Of a DNA stretch of 64,000 nucleotides, positions 7,755 through 22,738 are shown piece after piece. The notes under the pieces are model-generated. The model saw only the letters and a program-made list of their open reading frames with translations, was not told the origin of the DNA and ran no database searches. The stretch is from an uncultured Acidobacteriota bacterium (GTDB lineage: Bacteria; Acidobacteriota; Thermoanaerobaculia; UBA5066; Gp7-AA6). How positions within the stretch are numbered: position 1 is the first letter of the stretch; every line of letters starts with the position of its first letter. The stretch covers positions 215,113 through 279,112 of the forward strand of contig CAWGKP010000006.1 in the NCBI GenBank assembly GCA_963823185.1. Direction: 5' to 3'. Made by a program: the position numbers and the translations under genes.

Positions 7755-9352
7755 GCGCGTCCTCGGGCGCCCTCGCCGCGCAGGTCGGGACGGAAGTCCG
7801 CATGCGGATGCGTTCGGTCGGGACGCTCGTCGCGCTGCTGGCCGCGTTCGCGGCCGCGATCCTCTGGATCCCCGACCCCGCCGGCCGCGCGAGCTCGCTG
7901 TCGTGGCGCCTTCCCGACGGCCGCGTCCAGGCGCCGATCTACGACACGGCTTACATCGGCTTCGCGGCGTCGGCGCTCATCGCGATCCTCGTCGCGCTCG
8001 GCGGCTTCTATCTCGTCGCGGGCTCCGTGCGCCGCGACCGCGAGCGCGGGGTCGGCGCGATCCTCGCCGCGACGCCGCTGTCGAACGGTCGGTATCTCCT
8101 GGGCAAGTTCGCGGCGAGCGCGGCCTACCTCTCGGTCATCACCGCACTCGCGCTGACGGCGGGACTCACCGCGTGGCTGCGCTTCGGGAAGGGGCCGTTC
8201 GATCCTTTCGCGTTCTTCGTGCCGTTCCTCCTGCTGAGCCTGCCGGCCGTCGCGATCACCGCGGCGTTCGCGCTCCTCTTCGACGTGACGCCGGGGCTCT
8301 CCGGCCGGTGGGGCTACGTCGCGTGGTTCTTCGTCTTCTCGCTTCTCCTCGTCGGCGTGCCGATGGGACTCGCGGGCGCCGCCGAGGGGCAGGGCAAGCT
8401 GCGGCGCTCGCCGGCGATCGATCCGGTGGGCGCCGCGACGCAGGCCTACCTCGCGCGCCAGACGGTGCCCGGCGCCACCGGGTTCTCGACGGGGCTCGAG
8501 ATCCGCGACGAGCCGTTCGAGCGAGTGCCGTGGGCGGGGATCCGCGTGACGCCCGGGCTCGTGGCGCTGCGCGCGGCGAACCTGCTCGTGGCGTTCGTTC
8601 CGCTCGGAGCGGCATTGCTCCTCTTCGACCGGTTCGATCCGGCCCGCCGCGGACGGCGCGCGCTCCGGGGGACGAAATCCCGCAACCGCGGCCAGGCCGC
8701 CGAGAGCCCGGCGCCCGGGGACTCGCTCGCGGCAGCGGCGCCGATCGCGCTGGTACCCGCCGCCGTGCGTCCGTCCGCGCTGGCGGCCGTGCTCGCCGAG
8801 ACGCGTCTCATCTGGGAGAGCGCGGGGCTGCTCCGGTGGCCGCTTCTCGCGGCGGCGATTCTCGCGGGCTTCATTCCGGGAAAAGGAGCGGCGGCGGCGT
8901 TCCTGCTCCTCCTCGTGCCCGCGGTCGCCGAGGTCGCGGCCCGCGAGGATCTCTCCGGCACGCGCGCGCTCGTCTTCTCGCAGCCGGGCGTCCCGACCTC
9001 GGCCGTCCTCTGGAAGACCGCGGCGCTCGCGCTCTTCGTCGCGATTCTCGGCGCGCCGCTCGTGATCCGCAGCGCCGCCGCTTCGCCCGCGCGAGGGCTC
9101 GGCGCGCTGGCGGGTCTCCTCGCCGTCGCGGGAATCGCAACCGGTCTGGGCTTCCTGAGCTCGGGAGGCAAGCTCTTTTCCGGGCTCTATCTGCCGGTCT
9201 GGTACATGGCGGCGTCGAACGCGCCCGGCGCGGACTTCACCGGGACCCTCTCGCAAAGCCCGCGTCTCGCCGTGAGCCTCCTCTTCCTCGCGGGAGCGGC
9301 GGTTCTCGTGGCTGCCGCGGCGGGCCGCGAGCGCGCACGGCGAGCGGGGTAG
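7751..9352 (+). CDS. polytopic membrane protein, probable permease partner of the upstream ABC ATPase
   Basis: 533 aa with many hydrophobic helices and no soluble domain. The GTG start overlaps the ATPase stop (GTGA). The role is assigned by position only. Confidence 0.7.
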   Translation: MSASSGALAAQVGTEVRMRMRSVGTLVALLAAFAAAILWIPDPAGRASSLSWRLPDGRVQAPIYDTAYIGFAASALIAILVALGGFYLVAGSVRRDRERGVGAILAATPLSNGRYLLGKFAASAAYLSVITALALTAGLTAWLRFGKGPFDPFAFFVPFLLLSLPAVAITAAFALLFDVTPGLSGRWGYVAWFFVFSLLLVGVPMGLAGAAEGQGKLRRSPAIDPVGAATQAYLARQTVPGATGFSTGLEIRDEPFERVPWAGIRVTPGLVALRAANLLVAFVPLGAALLLFDRFDPARRGRRALRGTKSRNRGQAAESPAPGDSLAAAAPIALVPAAVRPSALAAVLAETRLIWESAGLLRWPLLAAAILAGFIPGKGAAAAFLLLLVPAVAEVAAREDLSGTRALVFSQPGVPTSAVLWKTAALALFVAILGAPLVIRSAAASPARGLGALAGLLAVAGIATGLGFLSSGGKLFSGLYLPVWYMAASNAPGADFTGTLSQSPRLAVSLLFLAGAAVLVAAAAGRERARRAG

Positions 9353-9403: not shown

Positions 9404-9877
9404 TTAGGTCGGGATCCAGTCGGGCAGGGGATTGTCGGGCCGCGCGTTGTCCCAGGCGATCGAAACGATCGCCCAGCGCTTCCCGTCGTGGGCGAGCTGC
9501 AAACTGTTGATGCCGCGGAAGAGGATCTCGGGATCGTGGAGGCGGCGTCCCGCGGCGTACGCCGAGAGCACGTGCGCGACGTTTCCGAAGCGGAAGATGC
9601 GCCGCGCGATCTCCCACTCGTAGAAGTCGCCGGCGTCGAAGAAGGCGCGACGCGACTCGAGCCACTGATCGAAGGTGAGCGGAACGCGCGCGACGGCGGG
9701 CGCGTCGCCCGGCTTCGCCGTCGGGATCGGTCCCGTCGGCATGAGGACTGCGCCCGGCGCGAAGAGATTGCGGTCGCGCTCCCAGTCGCGCGGGCCGGCC
9801 GGTCCGGAGATGGATTCGTACAGCGCGTCGAGGAGCCCCTCGATCGTCGCGGTGTCGCGGTCGGAGGCGCCGGTCAT
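9404..9877 (-). CDS. NTF2-like / SnoaL-DUF4440-like small protein
   Basis: C-terminal part of track ORF 9404..13198(-): MTGASDRDTATIEGLLDALYESISGPAG...WAIVSIAWDNARPDNPLPDWIPT. ATGA overlaps the stop of the upstream BNR gene. The fold call is a soft guess from length and pattern. Confidence 0.65.
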   Translation of the reverse strand: MTGASDRDTATIEGLLDALYESISGPAGPRDWERDRNLFAPGAVLMPTGPIPTAKPGDAPAVARVPLTFDQWLESRRAFFDAGDFYEWEIARRIFRFGNVAHVLSAYAAGRRLHDPEILFRGINSLQLAHDGKRWAIVSIAWDNARPDNPLPDWIPT

Positions 9878-12800
9878 TCCGGCCTCCACGTCGGCACGCG
9901 GCCCGGCGTCCAGGGCGCGCCGGCCGCCTCCATGCGGGATTCCAGGCTCGCGAGGTCCTTGTCCGCCTGGCGCAGCTTCTCGAGCACGGGCGCGAACTCC
10001 TCGGCGGCGATGGTGTAACCGTCGCGGCTCGTCTGCGTCGGCGCCGACACCGAGCTCCACTGCGTCCCGATGATCGCGTCGATCCTGTCGGTGATGCCGG
10101 GCGCCGTCGGCTCCTGGCGAGCGGCCATCACCTTGTCGCCTTCGAGCGCGAGCAGAACGTCGCGCAGGCGCGCCTCGAGCGAGCGCGCGTCCTTTTCGAG
10201 CGCCGGGTCGGCCGCCGGCGTGTCGTGGAGCGCCTGCTTCATGTCCGCGAGGCGTTTCTGGTCTTCCTTCGCGGCCGAGACCGCGCCGAACGCGGCGCGC
10301 TGGAGCCGCGCGGTCTTGCGCTGGAACGCGAGGAGCTCGGCGCGGTCGGCAGGCGGCAGCGAGCCCGTTCCGAGCGCGGCCACCTCGAACGCGACCGGCC
10401 CGGCGAGCGGCGTCACGACGCCGTCCACGCGCTTCGCGAGCGAGACGCTGTACTTTCCGGGCACCGTCATCGGTCCGGTCGGCGGCTGCTGCCACGGAAT
10501 CGTCGGATCGGGCTTCGGCGTGTCGCTCGGGTTGGACGGCGGGAAGCGCAGGTCCCACGCGATGCGGTGGACGCCGGCCGTGCCGGGCGCGGTCAGGCGG
10601 CGCACGACGTTGCCGTCGGAGTCGGCGATCGTGAAGAGCAGGACCGGATCTTCTTCGGCCGCCTCGGCCCGCAGCTCCTCCGCCGTCGGATAGGGCGACG
10701 CGGCGCCGTCCTTGGCCGCCTTCTTCTCGGCCTCCTGGCGCATCTTCTTCTTCGTCTTGAGATCCGACTTCAGGTAGTACGTCACGACGGCGCCGAACGG
10801 CGGGTTCGGGGCGGCGTAGTACGCATCGCCGAGGAAGCCCTTGCCGGGGAATCCGAGCGGGCTCGTCGGGTGGTAGGCCCACGCGTTGCGCACCGGGAAG
10901 ATCGCCGCGTCCTGGTCGAGCGCCGCCGGGCTGGCCGCGCGCAGCGCCGTGTCGTCGTCGAGGATGTAGATGCCGCGCCCGAACGTGGCGACGACGAGAT
11001 CGTTCTCGCGCGTCTGGATCGCGAGGTCGCGCACGGCGATCGTCGGCAGGCCGCCCTTGAGCGGCACCCAGTGCGCGCCGCCGTCCTTGCTGAAGAAGAG
11101 CCCGAATTCCGTCCCGGCGAAGAGGAGGCCCGGATCGCCCGGGTCTTCCACGGCGACGTACACCGTCCCGCGCGCCGGCAGATCGCCGGCGATCGAGGTC
11201 CAGGTGCGCCCGCGGTCGGCGCTCTTCAGGAGGTACGGCTTGAAGTCGCCCATCTGGTGGTTGTCGAAGGCCGCGTAGACGGTCGAGGCGTCGCGCGGCG
11301 AGGGCTCGAGGCGCGCCACGTAGGTGTTGGCGCGGCACGCCGGGAAAGCTCTCGACGCGCCGCCACGTCGCGCCGCCGTCCTCCGTGACCTGCACCAGGC
11401 CGTCGTCCGTGCCGACGTAGAGGAGCCCTTCCTGCCTCGGCGACTCGGAGAGCGACACGATGTTCCCGTAGAACGACGTCGAGGCGTTCTTTGCGACGGC
11501 GTCCGCGTTCCAGACCTTCCCCATGACGGGCAGCTTGTTGCGATCGATCCGCCGCGTCAGGTCCGGGCTGATCGGCTTCCAGCTCTGGCCGCGGTCGTCG
11601 CTGCGGAAGACGCGCTGCGCAGCGAAGTAGAGCCGCGTGTGCGCGTGCGGCGAGATGAGGATCGGCGAGTCCCAGTTCCAGCGCAGCGGCTCCTCGCCCT
11701 TGCCGGGCTGCGGCTGGATGGCGAGGAGGTCGCCGCTCTTGCGGTCGAGGCGCTGGAGCCCGCCGTACTGCGCTTCCGAGTACACGACGTTCGGGTCCTT
11801 GGGATCGACGCGCGGCTGGAAGCCGTCGCCGGAGACGGTGACGAACCAGTCGGAGTTGGCGATGCCGTGCACGTTGCCGGTCCGCGACGGGCCGCCCAGG
11901 CTGTCGTTGTCCTGCGTGCCGCCGTAGACGTTGTAGAAGGGCGCGGCCTCGTCCGCGACGACGCGGTAGAACTGCGCGAGCGGCAGGTTCGCCTTGAACT
12001 CCCACGAGGCGCCGCGGTCGAAGCTCTCGTACACGCCGCCGTCGCACCCGACGCGGTAATGGCGCGTGTCGTCCGGATCGATCCAGATGACGTGGTTGTC
12101 CACGTGCTTGGAGCTCTCGCCGAGCTTGTGGAACGTCTTGCCGCCGTCGTCGGAGACCTGGAGGAAGACGTCCACCGAGTAGACGCGCTCGCTGTTCTTC
12201 GGATCGACGGCCAGGCGCGTGTAGTAGAGGCCGCTCGTGACGTGGTCGCCGCGCTTCTCCCAGGAGACGCCGCGGTCCGTCGAGCGAAAGACGCCGCCGG
12301 CCTTGTTCGCCGCCTCGACGATCGCGTACACGGTGTCGGGAGCCGACGGCGCGATGGCCAGGCCGATGCGCCCGAGCTCCTCCTTCGGAAGTCCCGCGTC
12401 GATCTTCTTCCAGGTCGCGCCGGCGTCGGTCGAGCGGTAGAGCGCCGACTCGGGACCGCCGTCGATCTGCGTCCAGACGTGCCGCCGCCGCTGATGCGCC
12501 GCCGCGAGGAGGACGTCGGGATTGCGCGGATCCATCGCGACGTCGGCGACGCCGGTGTTCTCCGAGATCGTGAGGACCGCCTTCCACGTCTTGCCGCCGT
12601 CGGTCGTCTTGTAGAGGCCGCGGTCGCCGCCCGCCGACCACAGCGGGCCCTGCGCCGCGACGTACACGACGCGCGAGTCGCGCGGGTCGATGCGGATGCG
12701 GCCGATGTGCTCGGAGCTCTTGAGCCCCATGTTCTGCCACGTCTTGCCGCCGTCCTCGGACTTGTAGATGCCGTCGCCGTACGAGACGCTCCGCTGGCTG

Positions 12801-13198
12801 TTGTATTCGCCGGTGCCGACCCAGATGACCGCGGGATCGTTCGGATCGAGCGCCAGGCAGCCGATCGAGTACGAGCCCTCGCCGTCGAAGATCGGCGTCC
12901 AGGTGACTCCGGAGTTCACGGTCTTCCAGACGCCTCCCGAGGCGGCGGCGACGTAGTACGTCGCGGGATTGCCCGGAACGACCGCGATGTCGTTGACGCG
13001 CCCCGACGTGACGGCCGGCCCGATCGACCGCAGCTCGAGGCCCTTCCAGGTGTCGGACGAAAGGAGCGGCGGCTTCTTGTCTTCTGCAGGCGCGGCCGGC
13101 GCCGCGGCTTTCTTGCCGGGCGGCTCGGCGGCCGTCCCGAGAGCGGCGGCGAGAGTGATCGACGCGAGGCCGAGCGCGATGCGGCGGTGCATTTTCAT
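9874..13198 (-). pseudogene. BNR/sortilin (VPS10)-like repeat exoprotein with one reading-frame break near 11329..11336
   Basis: The N-terminal 620 aa (frame of track ORF 9404..13198) carry a signal peptide and repeated S/T-x-D-x-G-x-T-W motifs (SEDGGKTW, TTDGGKTW, STDAGATW, VSDDGGKTF, VTEDGGATW). The protein continues seamlessly in the frame of track ORF 9874..11319 (...NTYVARLEPSPRDASTVYAAFDNH...SADRGRTW...). Paralogue of intact 31194..34253. Confidence 0.8.
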
Positions 13199-13254: not shown

Positions 13255-15534
13255 ATGGCCGCGGAAGCCGTCACGATCTTCCTCTCGGCGTTCCTGCTCT
13301 TCGAGGTCGAGCCGCTGATCGCCAAGGCCATCCTGCCGTGGTTCGGCGGGGCCTCGTCGGTGTGGACGACCTGCCTCCTCTTCTTCCAGGCGGCGCTCCT
13401 CGGCGGTTATCTCTACGCGCACGTCCTTTCGCGCCTCTCGCCCCGCGCCGCGCGCGCCACGCACGCAACGCTCGTCGGGCTGTCGGTCCTCCTCCTCGTC
13501 GCCGCGGCGATCGGCGGACGCCCGCCGGTCCTGCCGCCGCTCGCCCTGCGTCCGGCCGATTCCGGGACGCCCGTCCTCCGTGTGCTCGCGGCGCTCGCGG
13601 CCGGCGTCGGGCTGCCGTTCTTCGTCCTGTCGTCCACGGGACCGCTCCTCCAGTCGTGGATCGCGCGGCGGCGTCCGCAGGCGCGCGTCTTCCGCCTCTT
13701 CGCGCTGTCGAATCTCGCGTCGCTCGCGGCGCTCCTCGCGTACCCGTTCGTGATCGAGCCGGCGCTCGGGCTCGCGCGCCAGGCGTGGATCTGGTCGGCG
13801 CTCTACGCGGCCTGCGCCCTTCTGCTCGTGGTCTGCGCTCTCCGCTCCGTCCCGGCGGCCGCCTCCGTCGCGACTTCTCCGGAGGGCGAAGCTCCGGATC
13901 CCGCCATCCGGCCCGCGCGGCGGATCTTCTGGCTGGCGCTCGCGGCGTGCCCGTCCGCGCTGCTCCTCGCCGCGACGAACCAGATGTGCCAGGAGGTCGC
14001 CGCGATTCCGTTCCTCTGGGTCCTGCCGCTCGGCTTGTACCTGCTCTCCTTCGTCCTCTGCTTCCAGAGCGACCGGCTCGCGCCGCGCGCCGTCTTCGGC
14101 CCGCTGCTCGTCGGCGCGCTCGGCTACGCGGCGTGGATCCTCTACCGCGGATACGGCGTGCCGATCCGTCAGCAGGTCCTCGCGGACGCGCTCGCGGTCT
14201 TCGCCGTCTGCATGGTCTGCCACGGCGAGCTCGCACGCAGCCGGCCCGCGCCGCGGCAGGCGACGGCGTTCTACCTGATGGTCGCGGCGGGCGGCGCTCT
14301 CGGCGCCGTCTTCGTCGCGGTCGTCGCGCCGCTCCTCTTCCCGGCCTTCTGGGAATTCCACCTGCTGCTCTGGCTCTCGGCGGTCGCGGCGCTCTTCGCG
14401 CTCGTGCGCGACACGGACTCGTGGCTTCATCGCGGGCGCGTCTGGCCGGCGCTCCTCACGCTCCTCGCGGTCGCGGTCCTCGCGTGGCAGATCCGGGATC
14501 CGGATCTGCTCGCGTCGCTCGCCGCGCGCGCGAAACGCGCCGTCGCCTCCGGTCCGGGCGCCGTCGCGGCGCTCGCGGCCGCGGCGCTCGCCGCCTTCGT
14601 CGCGCCGCGCTTCCTCCGGATGCGCGCGCGCCCGTATTTCGTCGCGGCGTGTCTGGCCGGGGCGGCGGGCTTCCTGGGTTATGCGCTCGTGGCCGACGTC
14701 CGCGCGTATCTGCGCGGGGCGATCGCGCTGTCGCGCAACTTCTACGGGGTGTTGACGATCGAGGCGCTCGATTCGCCGGATCCTCTGCTCTCGCGCCTGT
14801 CTCTCCGCAACGGCCGTATCGTGCACGGCTCCCAGTACCAATCGTCCGGGAAACGGCGCGAGCCGACGACCTATTACGGGCGGGCGAGCGGCATCGGATT
14901 GCTCCTCGACCATCACCCGGGACGCGCGCAGGAACGGCCGCTCCGCGTCGGCGTCGTGGGCCTCGGGACGGGAACGCTCGCGGCGTACGGGCGGCCCGGC
15001 GACGTGTTCCGCTTCTACGACATCAATCCCGACGTCGTGCGTCTCTCGAGCGGCCCGGCGCCGCGCTTCACGTACCTCGCGGACAGCCGCGCCGGGATCG
15101 AGATCGCGGCGGGCGACGCGCGCCTCTCGCTCGAGCGCGAGCTGGCGTCGGGGGCGCCGCCGCTCGACGTGCTCGCGGTGGACGCGTTCACGAGCGACGC
15201 GATTCCGGTGCACCTGCTGACGCGCGAGGCGATCGCGCTGTACGTGGCGCGCCTGCGCCCCGACGGCGTGCTCGCACTGCACCTCTCGAACCGGCAGCTC
15301 GATCTGCTTCCGGTGGCGAAGGCGGCGGCCGACGCCCTCTCGCTCGAGGCGTCGCTCGTCGACACGAACGACGACGGCGAGGGTTGCTGGGGCGCGACGT
15401 GGGTGCTGCTCGCGCGCGAGTCGGCGCCGCTCGAGCCGCCGGAGATCGACGAGGCGTCCGCGGATCTGCCCGAATCGCCCCGCGTGCGCCTCTGGACGGA
15501 CGACTACAGCAACCTCTTTCAGGTGCTGAAGTGA
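13255..15534 (+). CDS. fused polytopic membrane domain / spermidine-synthase-like (class I methyltransferase fold) protein
   Basis: 759 aa. The N-terminal ~480 aa are multi-TM. The C-terminus carries VGVVGLGTGTLAAYG and DVLAVDAFTSDAIPVHLLT, as in spermine/spermidine synthase family proteins. Confidence 0.85.
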   Translation: MAAEAVTIFLSAFLLFEVEPLIAKAILPWFGGASSVWTTCLLFFQAALLGGYLYAHVLSRLSPRAARATHATLVGLSVLLLVAAAIGGRPPVLPPLALRPADSGTPVLRVLAALAAGVGLPFFVLSSTGPLLQSWIARRRPQARVFRLFALSNLASLAALLAYPFVIEPALGLARQAWIWSALYAACALLLVVCALRSVPAAASVATSPEGEAPDPAIRPARRIFWLALAACPSALLLAATNQMCQEVAAIPFLWVLPLGLYLLSFVLCFQSDRLAPRAVFGPLLVGALGYAAWILYRGYGVPIRQQVLADALAVFAVCMVCHGELARSRPAPRQATAFYLMVAAGGALGAVFVAVVAPLLFPAFWEFHLLLWLSAVAALFALVRDTDSWLHRGRVWPALLTLLAVAVLAWQIRDPDLLASLAARAKRAVASGPGAVAALAAAALAAFVAPRFLRMRARPYFVAACLAGAAGFLGYALVADVRAYLRGAIALSRNFYGVLTIEALDSPDPLLSRLSLRNGRIVHGSQYQSSGKRREPTTYYGRASGIGLLLDHHPGRAQERPLRVGVVGLGTGTLAAYGRPGDVFRFYDINPDVVRLSSGPAPRFTYLADSRAGIEIAAGDARLSLERELASGAPPLDVLAVDAFTSDAIPVHLLTREAIALYVARLRPDGVLALHLSNRQLDLLPVAKAAADALSLEASLVDTNDDGEGCWGATWVLLARESAPLEPPEIDEASADLPESPRVRLWTDDYSNLFQVLK

Positions 15535-16103
15535 TCGCGCGGGAAGATCTCGAGCGCTCGCTGTCGGCGTATCGCGCCGAGGACGCCTCGGAAGAGGAGT
15601 CGCTCGCGCGGATCCGCGCGCTCGTGCGGGACGCGCCGGACCCCTTCACGCGCGCCGTGCGCGATCACGTCACGGCGAGCGCGGTCGTGGCGCGGCCGGA
15701 CGGCGGCGCCTTCCTCCTCGTGTACCACCGGCGGCTCGAGCGCTGGCTGCAGCCCGGCGGCCACGTCGAGCCGGACGACGCATCGGTCTTCGAGGCCGCC
15801 CGCCGCGAGGCGCGCGAGGAGACGGGCGTCGAGGACCTCGCCGCGCCGGTCGGCGGCCGCGTGCTCGACGTGGACGTGCACCCGATCCCCGCGCGCCCCG
15901 ACCGGCCGGCGCACGTCCACTTCGACCTGCGCCACCTGCTCACGACGACGGCGACGCGCTTCTCCGTGGCGGCCGAGGAAGTTCGTCGCGCCGACTGGTT
16001 CACCTTCGAGGAGGCGCTCGCGGCGGGTGTCGATGCCTCGCTCTCGCGCGCGCTCCGAAAGGCCCGTGCCCTCCTCGGGGCGGAACCGCGCCGGCCCGGT
16101 TAG
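15531..16103 (+). CDS. NUDIX hydrolase
   Basis: C-terminal part of track ORF 13338..16103. Nudix box GGHVEPDDASVFEAARREAREETGV. The GTG start overlaps the upstream stop (GTGA). Confidence 0.85.
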   Translation: MIAREDLERSLSAYRAEDASEEESLARIRALVRDAPDPFTRAVRDHVTASAVVARPDGGAFLLVYHRRLERWLQPGGHVEPDDASVFEAARREAREETGVEDLAAPVGGRVLDVDVHPIPARPDRPAHVHFDLRHLLTTTATRFSVAAEEVRRADWFTFEEALAAGVDASLSRALRKARALLGAEPRRPG

Positions 16104-16801
16104 GGCGTCGCGGCAGCCGTCGGGACCGGAGTCCGTCCCTCGAGCGCCTGGATCGGGTGGCGCAGCATCTCCGGCGAAACCTTCGGCTCCTTGCGCAGGA
16201 AGAAGAGGTAGAGGATGCCGACGCCGATGACGAAGACGCCGGTCGCGCGGTTGATGGTGACGAGCGTCTCGTAGCGGAATCGCCCGCGAAAGAAGTTCGA
16301 CAGCCCGACGAGGAACGCGAACCAGGAGCTCGATCCGATCAGCACTCCCGCCACGAGCTCGGCCGTCAGGAACGAGTGGCCGTGGACGGCGCCGATGCCG
16401 AACGTCGCGAAGACCGCGACGAAGGCGATGAATGTCATGGGGTTGGTCAGCGTCAGAACGAGCGTCGAGAAGAAGTCCGCAGCGAGACCGCGGTCCATGT
16501 CCACTTCCTCGCGCTTGGGCGGCTTCAGAAAGAGCAGTCTCGCTCCGAGGACGAGCAGGACCGCGCCGCCGACGCGCTGGAAGATCAGGCGGTGATCCAT
16601 GAGGAAAGATGAGATGACCGTGACTCCGAAGGCCGCGAGCGTTCCGTAGAGCGCGTCGGCGACCGCGGCGCCGAGTCCGGAGACGAGCCCGGCGAGCTTG
16701 CCGTGCGAGATCGTCCGCTGGACGCAGAGGACAGCGATGGGACCGACGGGCGCCGCGAGGCAGAACCCGACGATCAGTCCCTTGACGAAGAGGTTCTCCA
16801 T
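16100..16801 (-). CDS. LysE/RhtB family amino-acid exporter
   Basis: 233 aa with 6 TM helices. N-terminal FVKGLIVGFCLAAPVGPIAVLCVQRT and central TNPMTFIAFVAVF are typical of the LysE family. Confidence 0.9.
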   Translation of the reverse strand: MENLFVKGLIVGFCLAAPVGPIAVLCVQRTISHGKLAGLVSGLGAAVADALYGTLAAFGVTVISSFLMDHRLIFQRVGGAVLLVLGARLLFLKPPKREEVDMDRGLAADFFSTLVLTLTNPMTFIAFVAVFATFGIGAVHGHSFLTAELVAGVLIGSSSWFAFLVGLSNFFRGRFRYETLVTINRATGVFVIGVGILYLFFLRKEPKVSPEMLRHPIQALEGRTPVPTAAATP

Positions 16802-16835
16802 CCGCGGCGGAGCCTATAACGGGGCAAGCAGCCGG

Positions 16836-17876
16836 CTAGCCGTACCACTCCGCTTCGCGCATCAGGCGGAGCCACTCGCCGAGATCCGTCGCGAGGACGT
16901 ACTCGCAGAGGCCGAGGTCGGAGAAGACGTCGTCGGGCGGCCCGTCGGGATCGAGCCGCTTGCGGATCGTCGCGAGCGACGATCCTTTGGCGAGCGAGCG
17001 GTTCTCGTTCCTTCCGAACTCGTTCGCGCTCCGGTAGGTCCGCGCGGCGGCCCACAGGGCCGGGATCCCGAACGAGACGGCGAGCGCGATGCTCTTCGCC
17101 TGGTTCCAATCCTCTCCCGCGTGCTCGGCGGCGACGTGGAAGACGGCGAACGCGACGCTCGTGAAGAACACGAGCGGGAGCCAGCCGGGCCGACGGATCC
17201 AGCGCTTCTCGATCCGCTCGGCGGCGCGCGCGAAGTAGTCGATCTGGACGTCGAGCCGCTTGCGCCGGTAGTACGCGACGATCACGAGCCGCCGGGCGCG
17301 GTCGAGGGCTTCGCAGGATGCGGCGGCCGGGCGCGGCGGGATGGCGTCCTCCGCGTGTGCGAGGGCGGGAAGGTCGTTCTCGCCGAGCGCCATGATCGCG
17401 TCGCGCGCCGTGACCAAGTCCGTCTCGCTCTTCGGCGTCGGGCCACCCGCGCACCAGAAGTCCGGCTCGACGAGCTTCTGGAACTTGAGAAGCCGCAGCC
17501 GCTCCGCCTTGTACCGCGCGATCAGCCAGGCCTTGTGGAACTCGAAGACGAGTCCGACGGCAACCAGCGCCGTCGCGACGAGCGAAAACGCCGCCTCCGC
17601 GAAGAGCCGCCACTCGTAAGGCGTCGCCGGCGGAAAGAGGGGCCCCAGCCGGACCTCCTCGGGGAAGGCGATGTTCACCGCCGCGAGCGCGAGCCCGAGC
17701 GCTCCGACGACACCCGCGCCGCCGGTGAAAAGCCGGTGGCGCCATTGATTGGCGTTCGCGGCGCCGTCGGCCTTTTCGTACGCGGGAACGAGCTCCCGTG
17801 CGCAGAAGGAGAGGTACTTGCCGAGCGGGCCCTCGTCGGTCAGGTCGCGCCCCTCGTCGTGGACGTCGTCCGTCAT
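16836..17876 (-). CDS. 4-TM membrane protein built from two SLATT/DUF4231-like repeats
   Basis: 346 aa. Each half has a basic lead-in helix, a 2-TM hairpin (LFTGGAGVVGALGLALAAVNIAF + FAEAAFSLVATALVAVGLVFEF; WLPLVFFTSVAFAVFHVAA + IALAVSFGIPALWAAARTY) and an amphipathic basic helix (HKAWLIARYKAERLRLLKF; RSANEFGRNENRSLAKG). ATGA overlaps the RyR gene. The CDS call is solid. The family call is pattern-based. Confidence 0.75.
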   Translation of the reverse strand: MTDDVHDEGRDLTDEGPLGKYLSFCARELVPAYEKADGAANANQWRHRLFTGGAGVVGALGLALAAVNIAFPEEVRLGPLFPPATPYEWRLFAEAAFSLVATALVAVGLVFEFHKAWLIARYKAERLRLLKFQKLVEPDFWCAGGPTPKSETDLVTARDAIMALGENDLPALAHAEDAIPPRPAAASCEALDRARRLVIVAYYRRKRLDVQIDYFARAAERIEKRWIRRPGWLPLVFFTSVAFAVFHVAAEHAGEDWNQAKSIALAVSFGIPALWAAARTYRSANEFGRNENRSLAKGSSLATIRKRLDPDGPPDDVFSDLGLCEYVLATDLGEWLRLMREAEWYG

Positions 17877-18169
17877 CGCGCGGGCGCCGCCTTCGCGATC
17901 CGGTAGCCGAGCACGACGATCGTCTTCAGGGTCTCGATCGCCGTGCGCCGGTCGTATTCCTTCTCGCTCTCCGAGAGCGACTCGTACGGCACGAGGCTCG
18001 GGTGCTCCTTCTTGGCGTCGTCGCGCCGCGGGCCGTAGCGCCAGCCGTCGGCGAGGCGCTGCCGCGCCCAGTTCTCGTGCGTGTTGCGGGCGAGCAGCTC
18101 GGTCAGCTCGACGACGTCCGGCGGGAGCCGGACGCCCGAGGTGTCTCTCGGCGCGGGGCGATAGTCCAC
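17873..18169 (-). CDS. stand-alone RyR (ryanodine-receptor repeat) domain protein, 98 aa
   Basis: The tail of track ORF 17873..19129(-) reads LLARNTHENWARQRLADGWRYGPRRDDAKKEHPSLVPYESLSESEKEYDRRTAIETLKTIVVLGY, which matches the RyR-domain consensus as I remember it. AGGAGG-N5-GTG start at 18169. Confidence 0.8.
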   Translation of the reverse strand: MDYRPAPRDTSGVRLPPDVVELTELLARNTHENWARQRLADGWRYGPRRDDAKKEHPSLVPYESLSESEKEYDRRTAIETLKTIVVLGYRIAKAAPAR

Positions 18170-18216
18170 GGCGGCCTCCTCTTTTCTTTCGGCAGCGCAG
18201 CCGGCGGCGTCCCCGG

Positions 18217-19188
18217 TCAGTTCACCTTGAATTTGAAGCCGTTGGGCGCCTGGATCTCGAAGGACTTCTTGTTGTTGCGCGGCGGAGGTTTCGGCGCGAC
18301 GGGCGCCGGGCGGATGTCGAACGCGAAGCGATAGGGCGCGCTCCTCTTCCCGTCGTTGTCCACGAGCGTGGCGTCGAGGACGACGTGCTCGGTGAGCGGC
18401 GAGGAGAGCCAGAAGGCGTAGCTGCCCGACGTGCGGCCGGTCATCCCCTCGAGCTCCATCGTCCACGGGCGGAAGGACGCGCCCTGCACCGGCTCGAATT
18501 TGACGAGCGCGGCGTCGCCCTTCTTGTCGGTGAAGTGGAGCACGAAGTTTCCGCGCTGGCCCTGAACGATCGGCGTCGGTGGAACCTCGATCGACTCGAT
18601 CTTGGGCGAGTGGCCGCGCGTGGCGAGAAAAGCGCCGCCGCCGACGAGGAGCGCCGCGACGGCCACGAGGCCGAGCGCGCGCGTCGAGACGCCGGAGGGC
18701 TTTGCCGCGGGAGCCGCGGGCGGGATCGCGGGAGCGGAGATCGACGGCCGGGATACCGCGACGCCCGTCTCGCTCGCGCGGCTCGGGCGGGCGAGCAGGA
18801 GTTTGACCGTCTCGGCGAGCCGATCGAGGTGCGCCTCCACCGAAGGCGTGTACGCGTCCAGCCAGTGCGAAGAGCTGATGAAGTACTCGAGCGTCTTGCC
18901 GAGCGGGACGTCCTCGATGCGCAGCGGGATGATCGCGACGCCCTTGTGCACGGCGCGCTCGACCTCCCGCTTGATCTGCGGCGACTTGTTCGCCGCGGCC
19001 GAGAAGACGAGCACCATGACCTTGCTCGCGCCGATGGCGTCCACGATCGCGGCGCCCCAGTCGAGACCGGGCAGGATGTCGCGCGGCGCGATCCAGCAGC
19101 GCACGCCATGGCGCTCGAGCGTGGCACACACGGCGTCCGCGACCGGCTTGTCGGCCGTCGAGTAGCTGACGAAGACCTCGTGCGCCAT
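18217..19188 (-). CDS. TIR-domain protein with single TM helix and C-terminal extracytoplasmic beta-rich domain
   Basis: From MAHEVFVSYSTADKPVADAVCATLERHGVRCWIAPRDILPGLDWGAAIVDAIGASKVMVLVFSAAANKSPQIKREVERA (TIR_2-type signature). This is followed by a Pro/Ala linker, a TM helix (ALGLVAVAALLVGGGAFLA) and a ~130-aa beta-rich C-terminal domain. I prefer ATG 19188 to the track start at 19230. Confidence 0.85.
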   Translation of the reverse strand: MAHEVFVSYSTADKPVADAVCATLERHGVRCWIAPRDILPGLDWGAAIVDAIGASKVMVLVFSAAANKSPQIKREVERAVHKGVAIIPLRIEDVPLGKTLEYFISSSHWLDAYTPSVEAHLDRLAETVKLLLARPSRASETGVAVSRPSISAPAIPPAAPAAKPSGVSTRALGLVAVAALLVGGGAFLATRGHSPKIESIEVPPTPIVQGQRGNFVLHFTDKKGDAALVKFEPVQGASFRPWTMELEGMTGRTSGSYAFWLSSPLTEHVVLDATLVDNDGKRSAPYRFAFDIRPAPVAPKPPPRNNKKSFEIQAPNGFKFKVN

Positions 19189-19265
19189 GGTCTGTCGAGT
19201 CGAGAGCGCGGGGATCTTATAACCGCGCACCCGGCACGAAGGGGCTACGGGGCGGTGCGGAGAGA

Positions 19266-19478
19266 CTACGGCGCCGCCCGGTGCATCACGTCCGGCTCGA
19301 AGACCTCCTCGATCAGCTTCCCGAAGACCTGGGCGATGCCGAACGCGAGCGGCAGGCTCGGGTCGTAGCGGCCGGTCTCGATCGCGTTGACGGTCTGGCG
19401 CGAGACGCCGAGCCGCTCCGCCAGATCCGCCTGCGACCAGTCGCGCTCGGCACGTAAAACCCGGAGGCGGTTCTTCAT
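19266..19478 (-). CDS. XRE-family helix-turn-helix transcriptional regulator (70 aa)
   Basis: MKNRLRVLRAERDWSQADLAERLGVSRQTVNAIETGRYDPSLPLAFGIAQVFGKLIEEVF. ATGA overlaps the upstream membrane-protein gene. Confidence 0.9.
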   Translation of the reverse strand: MKNRLRVLRAERDWSQADLAERLGVSRQTVNAIETGRYDPSLPLAFGIAQVFGKLIEEVFEPDVMHRAAP

Positions 19479-20062
19479 CGGTAGCGACGGTTCGCGAGAA
19501 CCATTCCGACGCCGCACGTGAGGACGAGGACTCCCGCCATCCAGACCCAGTTCAATCTCGGTAGACCAGCGGCTTCGAGCGCGGCGCCGGCCAGGGCGGC
19601 GAACAGCGAAACGACGAACCCGAATGCGAGCGCCTCCTGGGCGATGCGGCGCTGCAACTCGTCGGCGCGGCGCGCGATGCGGATCGTGCTCCAGGCGAAG
19701 AGAGCAGCGGGAGCGAGCGGCAGCAGCGCGGCGAAGAGCGCGAGAGGCGATCCCTTCGGCGCCTTCTCGTGGAGGCCGAGAAAGAAGATGAAGCTGAGCA
19801 TGCCGGCTTCCATCAGGGCCGCATCGTCCTGGCGCCTCCACATGCGGAGGATGGCCCACGCCGCCAGCGCGAGCCCGGCCACCGAAACGACACCGAACGA
19901 AAGCGCGTAGCTCGACCCCGGCACCCGCAATGCGCGCCCGGTGGCCACGAACGCGAGGATGAAGACGGCGGCGCCAATTCCCATCAGGATCAGGTCCGGT
20001 CCCGACTCCTTCATCGGCCTCACTCCGGAGGGACCGCAAATGCCCAATTCGACATGAGACAT
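19475..20062 (-). CDS. small polytopic membrane protein paired with the XRE regulator
   Basis: About 4 TM helices. Start chosen at ATG 20062 (AGGA 6 nt upstream). ATG 20014 and the track start 20110 are alternatives. Confidence 0.7.
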   Translation of the reverse strand: MSHVELGICGPSGVRPMKESGPDLILMGIGAAVFILAFVATGRALRVPGSSYALSFGVVSVAGLALAAWAILRMWRRQDDAALMEAGMLSFIFFLGLHEKAPKGSPLALFAALLPLAPAALFAWSTIRIARRADELQRRIAQEALAFGFVVSLFAALAGAALEAAGLPRLNWVWMAGVLVLTCGVGMVLANRRYR

Positions 20063-20162
20063 CGGTTTCCTCGCTTTCTGGATCATGGATAGGTCGTGCA
20101 TGCTTGGCAAAATGTAAAGTTATCTTGTCATACGTGGCCGACGAATCGTTGTTTTAGGATCA

Positions 20163-20191
20163 TTGACTTACGCCTTATTTACGCCTAACGT
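20163..20191 (+). promoter_or_regulatory. sigma70-like promoter with embedded direct-repeat operator upstream of imuA
   Basis: TTGACT-17 nt-TAACGT. The spacer carries AyTTACGCCT twice at 11-nt phasing. The first 25 nt match 38698..38722 (upstream of dnaE2) at 24/25 positions. Confidence 0.65.
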
Positions 20192-20217
20192 GGCCCTCCT
20201 TCGATTCGGAGGTCCGC

Positions 20218-21072
20218 ATGGGCGCATCACAGGCTCTCGCGATCGAGCGGTTGCTCGCGGAGAGCCTTGGCTCCGCGAAGAAGAAGGACGGCGTCCTGCT
20301 CGCCGGCCTCGGCGCCCGGCTCCGTCGCGCCTCGGAGCTCGCCGCCCCGCTCGAAACGCCGGGCGCGCTGCCGACGGCGCTCGCGCCGCTCGACCGCCTG
20401 CTTCTCGGAGGGCTCCCGAAGGGACGGCTCGTCGAGCTCTCGGGGCCGCGTTCGTGCGGGCGCTTCTCGCTCGGAATCGCGGCGCTCGCGGCGGCGACGT
20501 CGAGCGGCCTCGCCGCGGCGCTCGTGGATCTCGGCGATCACCTCGACCCGCAGGCGGCCGAGGGCGCGGGCGTGGACCTGCGATATCTCCTCTGGGCGCG
20601 GCCTCGGCGCGTCCGGGAAGCGCTCGCGGCGGCCGAGATGCTGCTCGCCGCGGGCTTCCCGCTCGTCGTCGCGGACCTGGGGCTCGCGGCGCGCACGCGC
20701 GGAACGCCCGACGCCGCGTGGGTGCGCCTGGCGCGCGCGGCCGCGGCGCAGGGGGCGGCGCTCCTTCTTTCGACGCCGTGGCGCGCGAGCGGCATCGCCG
20801 CCGACGCGGTCGTCTCGGCTTCCCGCGCGCATCCGGTCTGGCGGGGAAGCGGCCGCGCGCCGCGCCTTCTCGCCGGTCTCGCCTCGCGGCTGATGCTCGA
20901 GAAGCTCGGCCGCGCGACACCGGGAGCGGCCGTGCCGTCGGTTTTCCACGCCGCGGAGGCGCTCCCGGTGTTTCCGCCCCAGGCGTCTTTCGCCGCCTAC
21001 GAGGCGATTCGCGAAATTCCCGGGAACCCGTCGAATCCGGCATTGAAGCTCATGAGCCGGACGATCCCCTGA
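20218..21072 (+). CDS. imuA: ImuA-like RecA/SulA-fold protein of the imuA-imuB-dnaE2 mutagenesis system
   Basis: 284 aa. LDRLLLGGLPKGRLVELSGPRSCGRFSLGIAALAAA...ALVDLGDHLDPQAAEGAGVDLRYLLWARP is the typical ImuA core. It lies directly upstream of imuB, with GGAGG-N5-ATG. Confidence 0.75.
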   Translation: MGASQALAIERLLAESLGSAKKKDGVLLAGLGARLRRASELAAPLETPGALPTALAPLDRLLLGGLPKGRLVELSGPRSCGRFSLGIAALAAATSSGLAAALVDLGDHLDPQAAEGAGVDLRYLLWARPRRVREALAAAEMLLAAGFPLVVADLGLAARTRGTPDAAWVRLARAAAAQGAALLLSTPWRASGIAADAVVSASRAHPVWRGSGRAPRLLAGLASRLMLEKLGRATPGAAVPSVFHAAEALPVFPPQASFAAYEAIREIPGNPSNPALKLMSRTIP

Positions 21073-21094
21073 CCTCGACTCATTTAGAAGTCAA

Positions 21095-22738
21095 GTGACC
21101 CGAATGCGCCTCGCGTGCGTCCTCGTTCCGCTCTTCCCTCTTGCGGCCCGTCTGCGCAGCGAGCCGGACCTCAAAGGAGAGGCCGTCGTCCTCGTCGAAG
21201 GCAACGGTAACGCCGCGCGCGTGATCGCCGCGTCGCGTCCGGCGCGCCGCGCCGGCGTGGATGCGGGCATGACGCTGCCCCAGGCGCGGGCGCTCGTGCC
21301 GAAGCTGCTGGCGCGCGCGCGAGACCGCGAGAGCGAGCGCGCGGCGCAGGAGGCGATGCTCGAAGTCGCCGACGCGTTCTCGCCGCGCGTCGAGGACGGC
21401 GGCGAGGGCGTGATGTACCTCGACCTCGAGGGCATCCCGGCGCTGTCGGGCGACCACAAGCACAAGGGCCGCCCCGACGGTGATTCGGCGCTGAAGGTAG
21501 GGACGGGGGTGAGCGCCGGGCGAACCCGGCGCTTGTCGCGCTCTGCGAGCGCTCGGTGCGTCCCCGCCGGTGATCCGGAACCCGAGCGCGCGCTCGGCCG
21601 CGACCTCATCGCCGCCGTCGAGAAGACGGGCCTGCCCGCGCGCGCCGGCATCGCCTCCTCCAAGCTCGCCGCACGCGTCGCGGCGGGGCTGCCCGATTCG
21701 CCGGGAGTCGTGCCTCCGGGTGAAGAAGCGGAATTCCTCGCGCCGCTGCCGCTCGCGCGCCTGTCGCCGGAGATCGGGATCTCCGAGACGCTCGGGAGAT
21801 GGGGTCTGCGCTCGATCGGAGATTTCGCGAAGCTGCCTCCCGGCGAGATCGAGAGCCGGCTCGGGTCGCTCGGGCGGCGGCTGCACGCGTCCGCACGCGG
21901 GCGGGATCTCCGACCGCTCGAGCCGCGCCTGCCGGCGCTCTGTCTCTCCGAGGGCCTGGAGCTCGAGTGGCCGCTCGTCACGCTCGAGCCCTTTCTCTTC
22001 GTCGGCCACGCGGCGCTCGAACGGCTCACGGCGCGCCTCGACGGGCTGGGGCTCGCCTGCCGCCGGCTCGAGCTGACGATGACGCTCGATCCCGACGGCT
22101 GCGACGCGCGCGCGATCGCGCTGCCCGCGCCGACGCGCGACGTGAAGACGCTGCTGACGCTCGTGCGCCTGGAGCTCGAGGCGCGGCCTCCCGGGTCGCC
22201 CGTCGTCGGCTTCACTTTCGCCGCGCATCCCGACAAGCCGCGCCGCGCGCAACTTGCCCTCTTCGGGCCGCCGGCGCTGTCGCCCGACCGCCTCGCCACG
22301 ACGATCGCGCGTCTGGCCGCGCTGCTCGGCGCCGACCGCGTCGTCTCGCCCCGCGCCGCCGACGGCCACCGCCCCGAGCGCTTCGCCTCCTCCGGATACG
22401 AGCCGCCGCCTCCTCCCGAGATCGCGCGGCCGCCGCGCGCGGGACGCGGGCTCCTCGCCGTGCGCGTGCTGCGTCCGCCGGTGGAGCTCGAGGTCATGGA
22501 ATCTCCGGGAGATCCGGCCGGCCGGCCGGCCCGCGTCCGGTCCGCGCGCGACGCGACCCCCGAGATCGCGGGATCGGTGCGCGTGGCGGCGGGGCCCTGG
22601 TCCATGGAAGAAGGCTGGTGGTCCGACGCCCCTGCCGCGCGCGACTACTGGGACGTGGAGCTCGCCGAAGGCGGCCTCTACCGCCTCTACCGCGACCGCG
22701 CGTCGCGCGCGTGGTTCGCCGACGGCGTCTACGATTAG
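21095..22738 (+). CDS. imuB: ImuB, Y-family DNA-polymerase-like protein
   Basis: 547 aa. N-terminal [15 protein letters not shown]...VVLVEG...[17 protein letters not shown] and the C-terminal [19 protein letters not shown]...WFADGVYD tail are typical of ImuB. Confidence 0.85.

Follow-up and report, generated by a model that had tools for sequence, protein, structure and literature searches.

A conserved gene trio of a TIR protein, a ryanodine receptor-domain protein and a tandem SLATT-like membrane protein: a candidate Thoeris-like signalling module

In a 64,000-nucleotide stretch of the genome of an uncultured Acidobacteriota bacterium (class Thermoanaerobaculia, contig CAWGKP010000006.1), which we call the window, three minus-strand genes, co-directional and tightly coupled, can be read from the sequence at positions 16836-19188. 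They code for a protein with a TIR domain, a small protein with a ryanodine receptor (RyR) domain and a membrane protein with four transmembrane (TM) helices, hereafter 4TM. Do these genes form one functional unit and, if so, what would a domain shared with animal Ca2+ channels do between a TIR protein and a membrane protein? A first-pass annotation had proposed that the RyR protein connects the product of the TIR domain to a SLATT-type effector. Comparative genomics lends support to this central inference, as does the independent biochemistry of the component families from 2025-2026. The trio is a real three-gene unit, conserved in many bacterial phyla and in some archaea. By analogy with characterised systems, we lean towards reading it as a Thoeris-like, three-component module working with an NAD-derived signal.

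The operon and its conservation

The TIR gene (18217..19188, minus strand) starts with an ATG at 19188 and ends with a TGA (18219..18217), giving a product of 323 amino acids (aa). A spacer of 47 nt (18170..18216, minus strand) follows, in which a Shine-Dalgarno sequence AGGAGG (18180..18175) is located 5 nt ahead of the GTG start (18169) of the RyR gene (17873..18169, minus strand). The latter codes for a 98-aa protein with a single RyR repeat (PF02026), the putative sensor of an ADP-ribose (ADPR)-type signal. Its end overlaps the beginning of the 4TM gene (16836..17876, minus strand) in an ATGA stop/start (17873..17876, minus strand), and the 346-aa product of this last gene is a tandem SLATT-like protein, the putative membrane effector. 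In three of the loci described below (L081, L083 and L086) the RyR and 4TM genes likewise overlap by ATGA or stand only a few nucleotides apart. All of these coordinates, the spacer with its AGGAGG-N5-GTG, the overlap and the gap of 77 nt upstream of the operon had been given by the first-pass annotation and every one was found in the sequence. The GC content at third codon positions (GC3) was 0.92-0.95 in the three claimed frames (0.93 in the TIR gene and 0.92 in the 4TM gene) against 0.50-0.73 in the long alternative open reading frames (ORFs) of both strands. These long overlapping ORFs are artefacts of high GC content and the claimed frames are coding. For each of the three families (TIR, RyR and 4TM) the 64-kb window contains exactly one member, all of them inside the locus, and an Rfam scan of 15500-21000 gave no match to any RNA family. 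Pfam and PADLOC scans, together with the context of a relative, revealed no SIR2, SLOG, Macro, nuclease or cyclase gene near the locus, and neither a CD-NTase nor a pyrimidine cyclase, as expected for CBASS (cyclic oligonucleotide-based antiphage signalling) or Pycsar systems, was present at the locus of the window or in its annotated relatives. The PADLOC results, the Pfam domain calls and the contexts of the relatives thus support the claim that the layout is neither that of a canonical Thoeris nor that of a CBASS system.

A genome scan with the alignment of the 4TM family gave 80 loci from about ten phyla, and their six-frame ORFs were searched using both the proteins of the window and iterated profiles. 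Acidobacteriota sensu lato provided 39 of the loci and Planctomycetota 20, followed by Gemmatimonadota (5), Verrucomicrobiota (3), Nitrospirota, Lentisphaerota and Euryarchaeota (2 each) and other groups (7). The RyR domain was adjacent or fused to 4TM in 59 loci (immediately upstream in 50, downstream in 3 and as an in-frame fusion in 6), and a TIR gene was located within 3.6 kb of 4TM in 49, in all orders and orientations. Both partners were found together in 39 loci, so that the synteny anticipated for the trio does extend to other genomes, with a shuffled gene order that includes TIR-RyR-4TM, RyR-4TM-TIR, a divergent TIR gene and 4TM-RyR. The RyR-4TM pair was more strongly conserved than the TIR-4TM pair, and all-against-all clustering of the neighbouring ORFs gave no partner beyond RyR and TIR that was kept across lineages. 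The archaeal version of the module, found in two metagenome-assembled genomes (MAGs) of Euryarchaeota/Methanomicrobia (L034 and L037), consists of a RyR-containing ORF, a 4TM homologue and a TIR protein with one TM helix (TIR-1TM) and a PsbP-like C-terminus.

Single RyR::4TM proteins were found in six of the loci (L032, L036, L058, L060, L062 and L063), with the RyR domain at the N-terminus followed by a linker of about 30 aa and by the 4TM module. Such fusions make up at least 30 protein clusters with lengths of 429-491 aa. In the three contexts of RyR::4TM that were inspected a TIR-1TM gene was located directly beside the fusion, and these pairs represent the classic two-gene Thoeris layout, i.e. 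a TIR protein plus a sensor-effector.

The three proteins

The RyR protein of the window matched Pfam RyR (PF02026) over aa 3-92 with E=1e-34 and 119 bits. It also aligned with repeat 1 of animal RyR2 (residues 862-950, i-E=3.7e-20) and with the Bacteroides "putative ryanodine receptor" 3NRT (E=3.5e-30). Phage proteins with this same domain form homodimers that bind the cyclic ADPR (cADPR) isomers 2'/3'cADPR at nanomolar affinity or cleave them (Lopez Rivera et al., PMC13232231). In one of them, RyDEP, H75 and D117 constitute the catalytic dyad, W78 engages the adenine and H100 the phosphates, and published work has shown that the pocket of Repeat12 (R12) of animal ryanodine receptors binds adenine nucleotides and dantrolene via equivalent residues (PMC13232231). 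H31, W34, H56 and D73 of the window protein have a spacing identical to H75/W78/H100/D117 of RyDEP, as judged from the published positions. Among 66 RyR domains of the module, H31 was conserved in 100%, W34 in 98%, H56 in 87% and D73 in 95%, and the four positions were invariant or nearly so in the RyR::4TM fusions. From these residues we infer that the window protein binds an ADPR-type signal and is a putative sensor, a role to which two further facts point, namely that RyR is repeatedly fused to the N-terminus of the effector and that the RyR-4TM pair is the most conserved core. The linkage of RyR to 4TM in 59 of the 80 loci, the fusions, the TIR gene as the only other conserved neighbour and the ligand residues all support the earlier proposal that RyR connects a TIR product with a SLATT-type effector. 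The discussion of Lopez Rivera et al. (PMC13232231) is limited to the viral proteins and the animal RyR.

Other RyR fusions were also found. Proteins of about 382 aa in many clusters (P0078-P0095) combine RyR with PrsW (PF13367, a membrane protease), which represents another RyR-fused membrane module. In addition, proteins of about 850-900 aa with the order RelA_SpoT-TPR-LSDAT_prok (the SLOG domain of TRPM)-RyR are often located beside 4TM homologues that have no small RyR gene (L016, 7006-9552; L024, 3176-5869; also L014, L025, L035 and L079). These bring together in one bacterial protein two ligand-sensor domains of eukaryotic Ca2+ channels and a nucleotide pyrophosphokinase. The fusions of RyR to PrsW and to RelA_SpoT-TPR-SLOG fit a portable sensor domain.

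The 4TM protein contains two modules of two TM helices each. The N-terminal one (aa 33-133; 17478..17780, minus strand) is DUF4231/SLATT_3-like (Pfam DUF4231, 2e-4) and the C-terminal one (aa 203-283; 17028..17270, minus strand) is SLATT_1-like (Pfam SLATT_1, 0.011). When 26 homologues were compared with Pfam, DUF4231 was detected in 15, SLATT_1 in 12 (best 3.6e-11) and SLATT_3 in 8, with DUF4231 and SLATT_3 always on the N-terminal half and SLATT_1 on the C-terminal half. Several homologues score above the gathering thresholds, including P0027 with 43.6 bits for SLATT_1 (E=3.6e-11) and P0025, P0069 and P0071 with 29-30 bits, and scores of 27.7-28.4 bits were reached for DUF4231. At the level of the family, the profile matches hold the assignment of 4TM as a tandem SLATT and as a member of the SLATT superfamily. 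The first-pass suggestion of a SLATT/DUF4231 protein is therefore correct for the family, which passes the profile cut-offs, with the window protein itself remaining sub-threshold. When 1.84 billion cluster representatives were searched with a profile, 427 full-length matches were retrieved at E<=1e-30, a number that rose to 963 at E<=1e-10. The AlphaFold2 model of the window protein (predicted local distance difference test, pLDDT, 88.9; predicted template modelling score, pTM, 0.85) is all-alpha, with four long hydrophobic helices arranged as two hairpins and about 230 residues of conserved charge-rich helices on one side of the membrane.

The TIR protein matched Pfam TIR_2 with E=2e-23 over aa 5-124 (18817..19176, minus strand). 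Behind the TIR domain come a Pro/Ala-rich linker, one predicted TM helix (aa 171-189; 18622..18678, minus strand; Kyte-Doolittle score of 2.29 in a 19-residue window) and a C-terminal domain of about 130 aa (aa ~191-323; 18220..18618, minus strand) with the conserved tail FEIQAPNGFKFKV. As judged from its sequence, the protein crosses the membrane once and has a C-terminal ectodomain, a feature overlooked by the first-pass annotation. Since the TIR domain requires NAD+ it would be cytoplasmic, and with one TM helix the C-terminal domain would then presumably be extracytoplasmic. E75, S69 and W32 were conserved at 97-100% in 38 TIR domains from the loci. E75, the glutamate of KREVERA within SPQIKREVERA, was invariant both in these partner domains and in alignment A2, in agreement with its earlier designation as the putative catalytic residue. 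TIR orthologues of the same architecture were found in L001-L008, L011 and L071. The C-terminal domain had no Pfam match at E<=1, and a homologue search with the ectodomain as query returned nothing. Compared with distant syntenic orthologues, the identity was 71-76% in the TIR domain and 28-38% in the ectodomain, indicating a much faster evolution of the former domain's partner, the ectodomain. In the other loci, the TIR domain of nearly all partner proteins is followed by at least one TM helix, and the C-terminal domain of these proteins is TPR, PsbP (in archaea) or without assignment. In one locus (L046, 6500-12441) three tandem TIR-1TM-TPR paralogues of about 840-860 aa are located directly downstream of the 4TM homologue, with no RyR gene detected.

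A proposed relay, its setting and its rivals

If these pieces are put together, the TIR protein would be anchored in the inner membrane, its TIR domain facing the cytoplasm and its variable domain the outside, where an envelope cue, either phage attack or another insult, would bring TIR proteins together. The associated TIR domains would convert NAD+ into a cyclic-ADPR-type signal, with Glu75 as the catalytic residue. The 98-aa RyR protein might homodimerise like the R12 module and bind the signal in a pocket formed by His31, Trp34, His56 and Asp73. RyR is translationally coupled to the 4TM protein, to which its dimer is probably bound and with which it forms one polypeptide in many relatives. 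With the ligand bound, the SLATT protein would oligomerise or open, so that the membrane would be breached or depolarised and growth would stop or the cell would die. The whole looks like a prokaryotic chain from a cADPR-type signal over a RyR domain to a membrane effector, in which we infer the nature of the signal, the sensor function of RyR, the SLATT pore and the biological role.

Several findings, to which the chromosomal setting described further below must be added, weigh against this reading. The 4TM protein of the window scores under the Pfam cut-offs (22.1 bits for DUF4231, cut-off 24.7; 16.1 for SLATT_1, cut-off 26.3) and its match to NCBIfam SLATT_1 (9.4e-5, aa 37-138) is also below the cut-off. 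A profile-profile comparison of the N- and C-terminal halves of the family with hhalign found no similarity (probability 0.4), and since the halves are not detectably similar the name tandem SLATT rests on separate Pfam matches for each half. With the 4TM model as query, Foldseek gave nothing significant in the PDB (best E=0.06, to ABC-transporter helices) or in BFVD, where a viral SLATT protein first appears at rank 17 with E=1.7; we know of no solved SLATT structure. Among the 80 loci, 21 have no adjacent RyR and 31 no nearby TIR gene. The AlphaFold2 model of a natural fusion (P0031) has a high pLDDT, a disordered linker and a pTM of 0.71, and so predicts no fixed interface between RyR and SLATT in the monomer; a flexible linker is compatible with a pairing of RyR domains between protomers, though not evidence of it. 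Finally, the His/Asp dyad of the RyDEP glycosidase is retained in the window RyR, which means that the protein could degrade the signal instead of relaying it.

This last point leads to an alternative that we regard as unlikely and that deserves to be weighed closely. The RyR protein could be a negative regulator, a host glycosidase or a sponge for the basal TIR product that works as a threshold or as an off-switch, and the SLATT protein would then sense the signal itself. Ring nucleases have a comparable damper role in type III CRISPR. RyDEP, the founding RyR enzyme, does cleave 2'/3'cADPR by its dyad (PMC13232231), the corresponding positions H31 and D73 are conserved in the module to the extent given above, and the loci without an adjacent RyR would fit an accessory component. 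Furthermore, in type VII Thoeris, an experimentally verified defence system composed of the TIR protein ThsB and the SLATT effector ThsH with canonical cADPR as signal, the proposal is that cADPR binds between the SLATT protomers of ThsH and that no extra sensor is needed (Yirmiya et al., bioRxiv 10.64898/2025.12.03.692087). A damper is compatible with the sequence because phage homologues that only bind the signal keep the same residues, yet the fact that most of the tested phage homologues with these residues bind without cleaving (PMC13232231) also argues against it. So do the N-terminal placement of RyR in the fusions, at least 30 clusters of them, which is typical of sensor domains, and the stronger conservation of the RyR-4TM pair than of the TIR-4TM pair, which would be odd for an accessory damper. 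We therefore maintain the relay, with RyR as sensor, as the preferred reading.

Within this relay, the biological role has to be judged partly from the surroundings of the genes. The 77 nt that separate the stop of an upstream XRE gene (19266) from the TIR ATG include a conserved region (19189..19258, minus strand) with a -10-like TATAAG (19221..19216). About 70 nt before the ATG, including TATAAGAT, are conserved in L001-L003 despite a different upstream neighbour, and this region is likely the promoter of the operon rather than a structured element. The hairpin GCGCGG...CCGCGC described around the TATAAG is present in the window but was rejected as a conserved element, as its arms vary in relatives of 88-89% identity in which TATAAGAT and the ~70 nt are kept. 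The motif GTTATARG occurs twice in the 64 kb (0.09 expected), at 19216-19223 and 16813-16820 (minus strand), about 30 nt ahead of the TIR start and about 12 nt ahead of the start of a LysE gene, and the pair may be a shared -10 element or the site of a regulator. LysE itself, located downstream, was discarded as part of the module, being a neighbour in the closest relatives only. A multi-TM protein of 211 aa comes before the XRE/HTH_3 regulator of 66 aa (19266..20110, minus strand) and this pair recurs in L002, L004 and L011. It had been pointed out as lying immediately upstream, and we found it to be separable from the operon: in a close relative with an 89%-identical 4TM protein two genes of the opposite strand split XRE from TIR, and the pair was not retained as a component of the module.

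Beyond this pair the window contains a mutagenesis cassette of imuA-like (RecA_N) and imuB-like (IMS) genes (20218..22738, plus strand). Upstream of imuA there is a direct repeat TTACGCC-N5-TTACGCC (~20166-20184), with a similar one before imuA in L081 (~8440-8462), which may be an operator. In Thermoanaerobaculia-like genomes imuA-imuB adjoins the trio as the identity of 4TM falls from 89% to 33%, a stable place in the core genome that the first-pass annotation had not noted, and in Terriglobia-like genomes the trio is found between a GH3 gene, DUF1501/DUF1800 and the nuo operon, i.e. in housekeeping surroundings. The GC content of the module is equal to that of its flanks. No known defence genes were found in the eight contexts inspected, a small sample, and PADLOC called no system with the three proteins or with both family alignments, giving weak matches to the SLATT models associated with reverse transcriptases. 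No relatives of 4TM were found in 2.9 M viral contigs of IMG/VR. A further neighbour, a BNR/sortilin-like gene starting at 13198 (minus strand), changes frame at ~11,325-11,335 after "...WRRVESFPGVP" and continues in +1 as "NTYVARLEPSPRDASTVYAAFDNH...", an apparent single-base indel due to an assembly error or to a pseudogene. The long ORF 9404..13198 would hence be a chimera of frames; L002 and L003 carry an orthologue that seems intact.

The genomic context argues neither for nor against defence. An anti-phage or abortive-infection role is our leading guess, made by analogy, and the patchy distribution across domains, the shuffled gene order and the fast ectodomain are features typical of conflict systems. 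The same chain could instead serve a resident outside-in signalling, for envelope stress, cell-cell or developmental processes or a regulated ion flux, in which the TIR ectodomain would sense an extracellular cue and SLATT would be a gated channel and not a suicide pore. This seems to us quite improbable, and it is kept as a serious rival because the context is unhelpful and defence is argued by analogy. The stable and vertically inherited position by imuA-imuB or by nuo/DUF1501/DUF1800 over deep divergence would fit it, together with the GC content, the surroundings without detected defence genes or PADLOC system, the absence of the 4TM family from viral contigs and the receptor-like organisation (TIR, TM helix and a PsbP, TPR or unassigned ectodomain) of nearly all TIR partners. 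Against it stand the spread over about ten phyla plus archaea with shuffled order, the rate of evolution of the ectodomain and the fact that phages encode RyR-domain proteins specifically against such signalling (PMC13232231). All characterised bacterial pairs of TIR and membrane effector are, in the part of the literature covered, anti-phage. The remaining alternative, with no relay at all, in which TIR would be an NAD+-depleting effector or toxin and RyR and 4TM functionally unconnected neighbours (such as an immunity or antitoxin pair), agrees with the NADase effector activity of many bacterial TIR domains and with the resemblance of this TIR_2 domain, at low PADLOC scores, to SAVED-TIR and Ago-associated effector TIRs, and is made very improbable by the 39 of 80 loci in which TIR accompanies RyR-4TM in several orientations, by the TIR genes that adjoin RyR::4TM fusions and by the demonstrated binding of cADPR isomers by the RyR fold (PMC13232231).

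Relation to known TIR systems and meaning

The relay proposed here resembles type VII Thoeris in having a TIR gene beside a membrane protein of the SLATT superfamily and in the predicted logic of an ADPR signal that activates a membrane-breaching effector. It differs in several respects. Type VII has two genes and a single SLATT effector, whereas here there are three genes in the window, or TIR plus RyR::4TM in relatives, and the effector, tandem SLATT-like with four TM helices, belongs to a distinct family. A RyR protein is found between TIR and effector or fused to the latter, the window TIR is a membrane-anchored protein of TIR_2 type with an ectodomain, and the context is not a defence island. 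BLASTP detected no similarity between the TIR protein and one type VII TIR domain, the single example taken from Table S1 of the type VII preprint. Among the roughly 29 classes of effector catalogued in that preprint is "SLOG and 4TM", an unvalidated candidate (Tables S1/S2, bioRxiv 10.64898/2025.12.03.692087), and we found no mention of RyR in its text or in the part of its supplementary table that was covered. From its description, the "SLOG and 4TM" candidate shares with our module a TIR gene beside a four-TM protein with a cytoplasmic nucleotide-sensor domain, which is SLOG there and RyR here.

Type II Thoeris, formed by a TIR protein and a Macro-TM effector with histidine-ADPR as signal, also has a small cytoplasmic sensor on a membrane-disrupting effector that reads an ADPR-derived molecule, but its sensor has the Macro fold and its TM module is another one, and the sensor of the window is a separate polypeptide. 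As in Thoeris systems generally, the module contains a TIR protein with the conserved, putatively catalytic Glu and an effector partnered with a fold that binds such signals, although binding by the window RyR is presumed from its residues. Rst_2TM_1TM_TIR is reportedly a three-gene TM/TM/TIR system, attributed to Rousset and colleagues in 2022. Our three proteins had no match to it in PADLOC-DB 2.0.0, a library in which the presence of those models is unconfirmed. In the literature and in PADLOC we found no description of a cellular association of RyR with SLATT or with TIR, an earlier mention not being fully excluded. The module is best filed as a variant of Thoeris-like TIR signalling, distinguished by the putative RyR sensor, the split or fused 4-TM SLATT effector and the membrane-anchored TIR protein.

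The relationship with phage RyDEP is of a different kind. Both proteins have the PF02026 domain, the residues His-x2-Trp-x21-His-x16-Asp and a single repeat that is expected to homodimerise. RyDEP is encoded by phages, whereas the RyR of the module is found on cellular MAG chromosomes, linked by coupling or fusion to a membrane effector and with TIR alongside, and the 4TM family is the one absent from IMG/VR. The chromosomal location and the coupling to an effector beside TIR indicate that the window RyR is most likely a host-side sensor or regulator and not an immune-evasion factor. With the R12 of animal ryanodine receptors the window protein has a strong sequence similarity, but the animal repeat is found in tandem in a 5000-aa Ca2+ channel with an unrelated pore and the bacterial one is a single repeat with a SLATT partner.

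If the relay is correct, RyR/R12 would be a new sensor fold in host-side TIR signalling, accompanied by a new effector family, and the origin of the phage RyDEP anti-Thoeris proteins would be explained. Furthermore, a membrane-anchored TIR protein with variable ectodomains would suggest that cues outside the cytoplasm can set off TIR signalling, which to our knowledge has not been described for Thoeris. Three of the phyla involved (Acidobacteriota, Planctomycetota and Gemmatimonadota) are poorly sampled by screens based on defence islands, and this, together with the location of the genes outside islands, may explain why the module has been overlooked. More tentatively, and as a possibility we hold with reserve, the trio could be a complete prokaryotic receptor-like pathway from a TIR protein of Toll-like topology over a cADPR-type messenger to an R12-type RyR domain on a channel or pore. 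Such a pathway would be the counterpart, and possibly the source, of the animal cADPR-RyR axis, the phage RyDEP proteins would be captured copies of the host sensor, and its role might be a resident signalling of the envelope or of the cell state instead of a classical defence against phages. It would also offer a simple setting in which to decide if R12 domains bind cADPR isomers, and in what way, to open a membrane conductance. A direct action of cADPR on animal ryanodine receptors has long been debated, and the module, with its three genes or two when fused, would provide a minimal system for the action of cADPR-type ligands on RyR-repeat domains.

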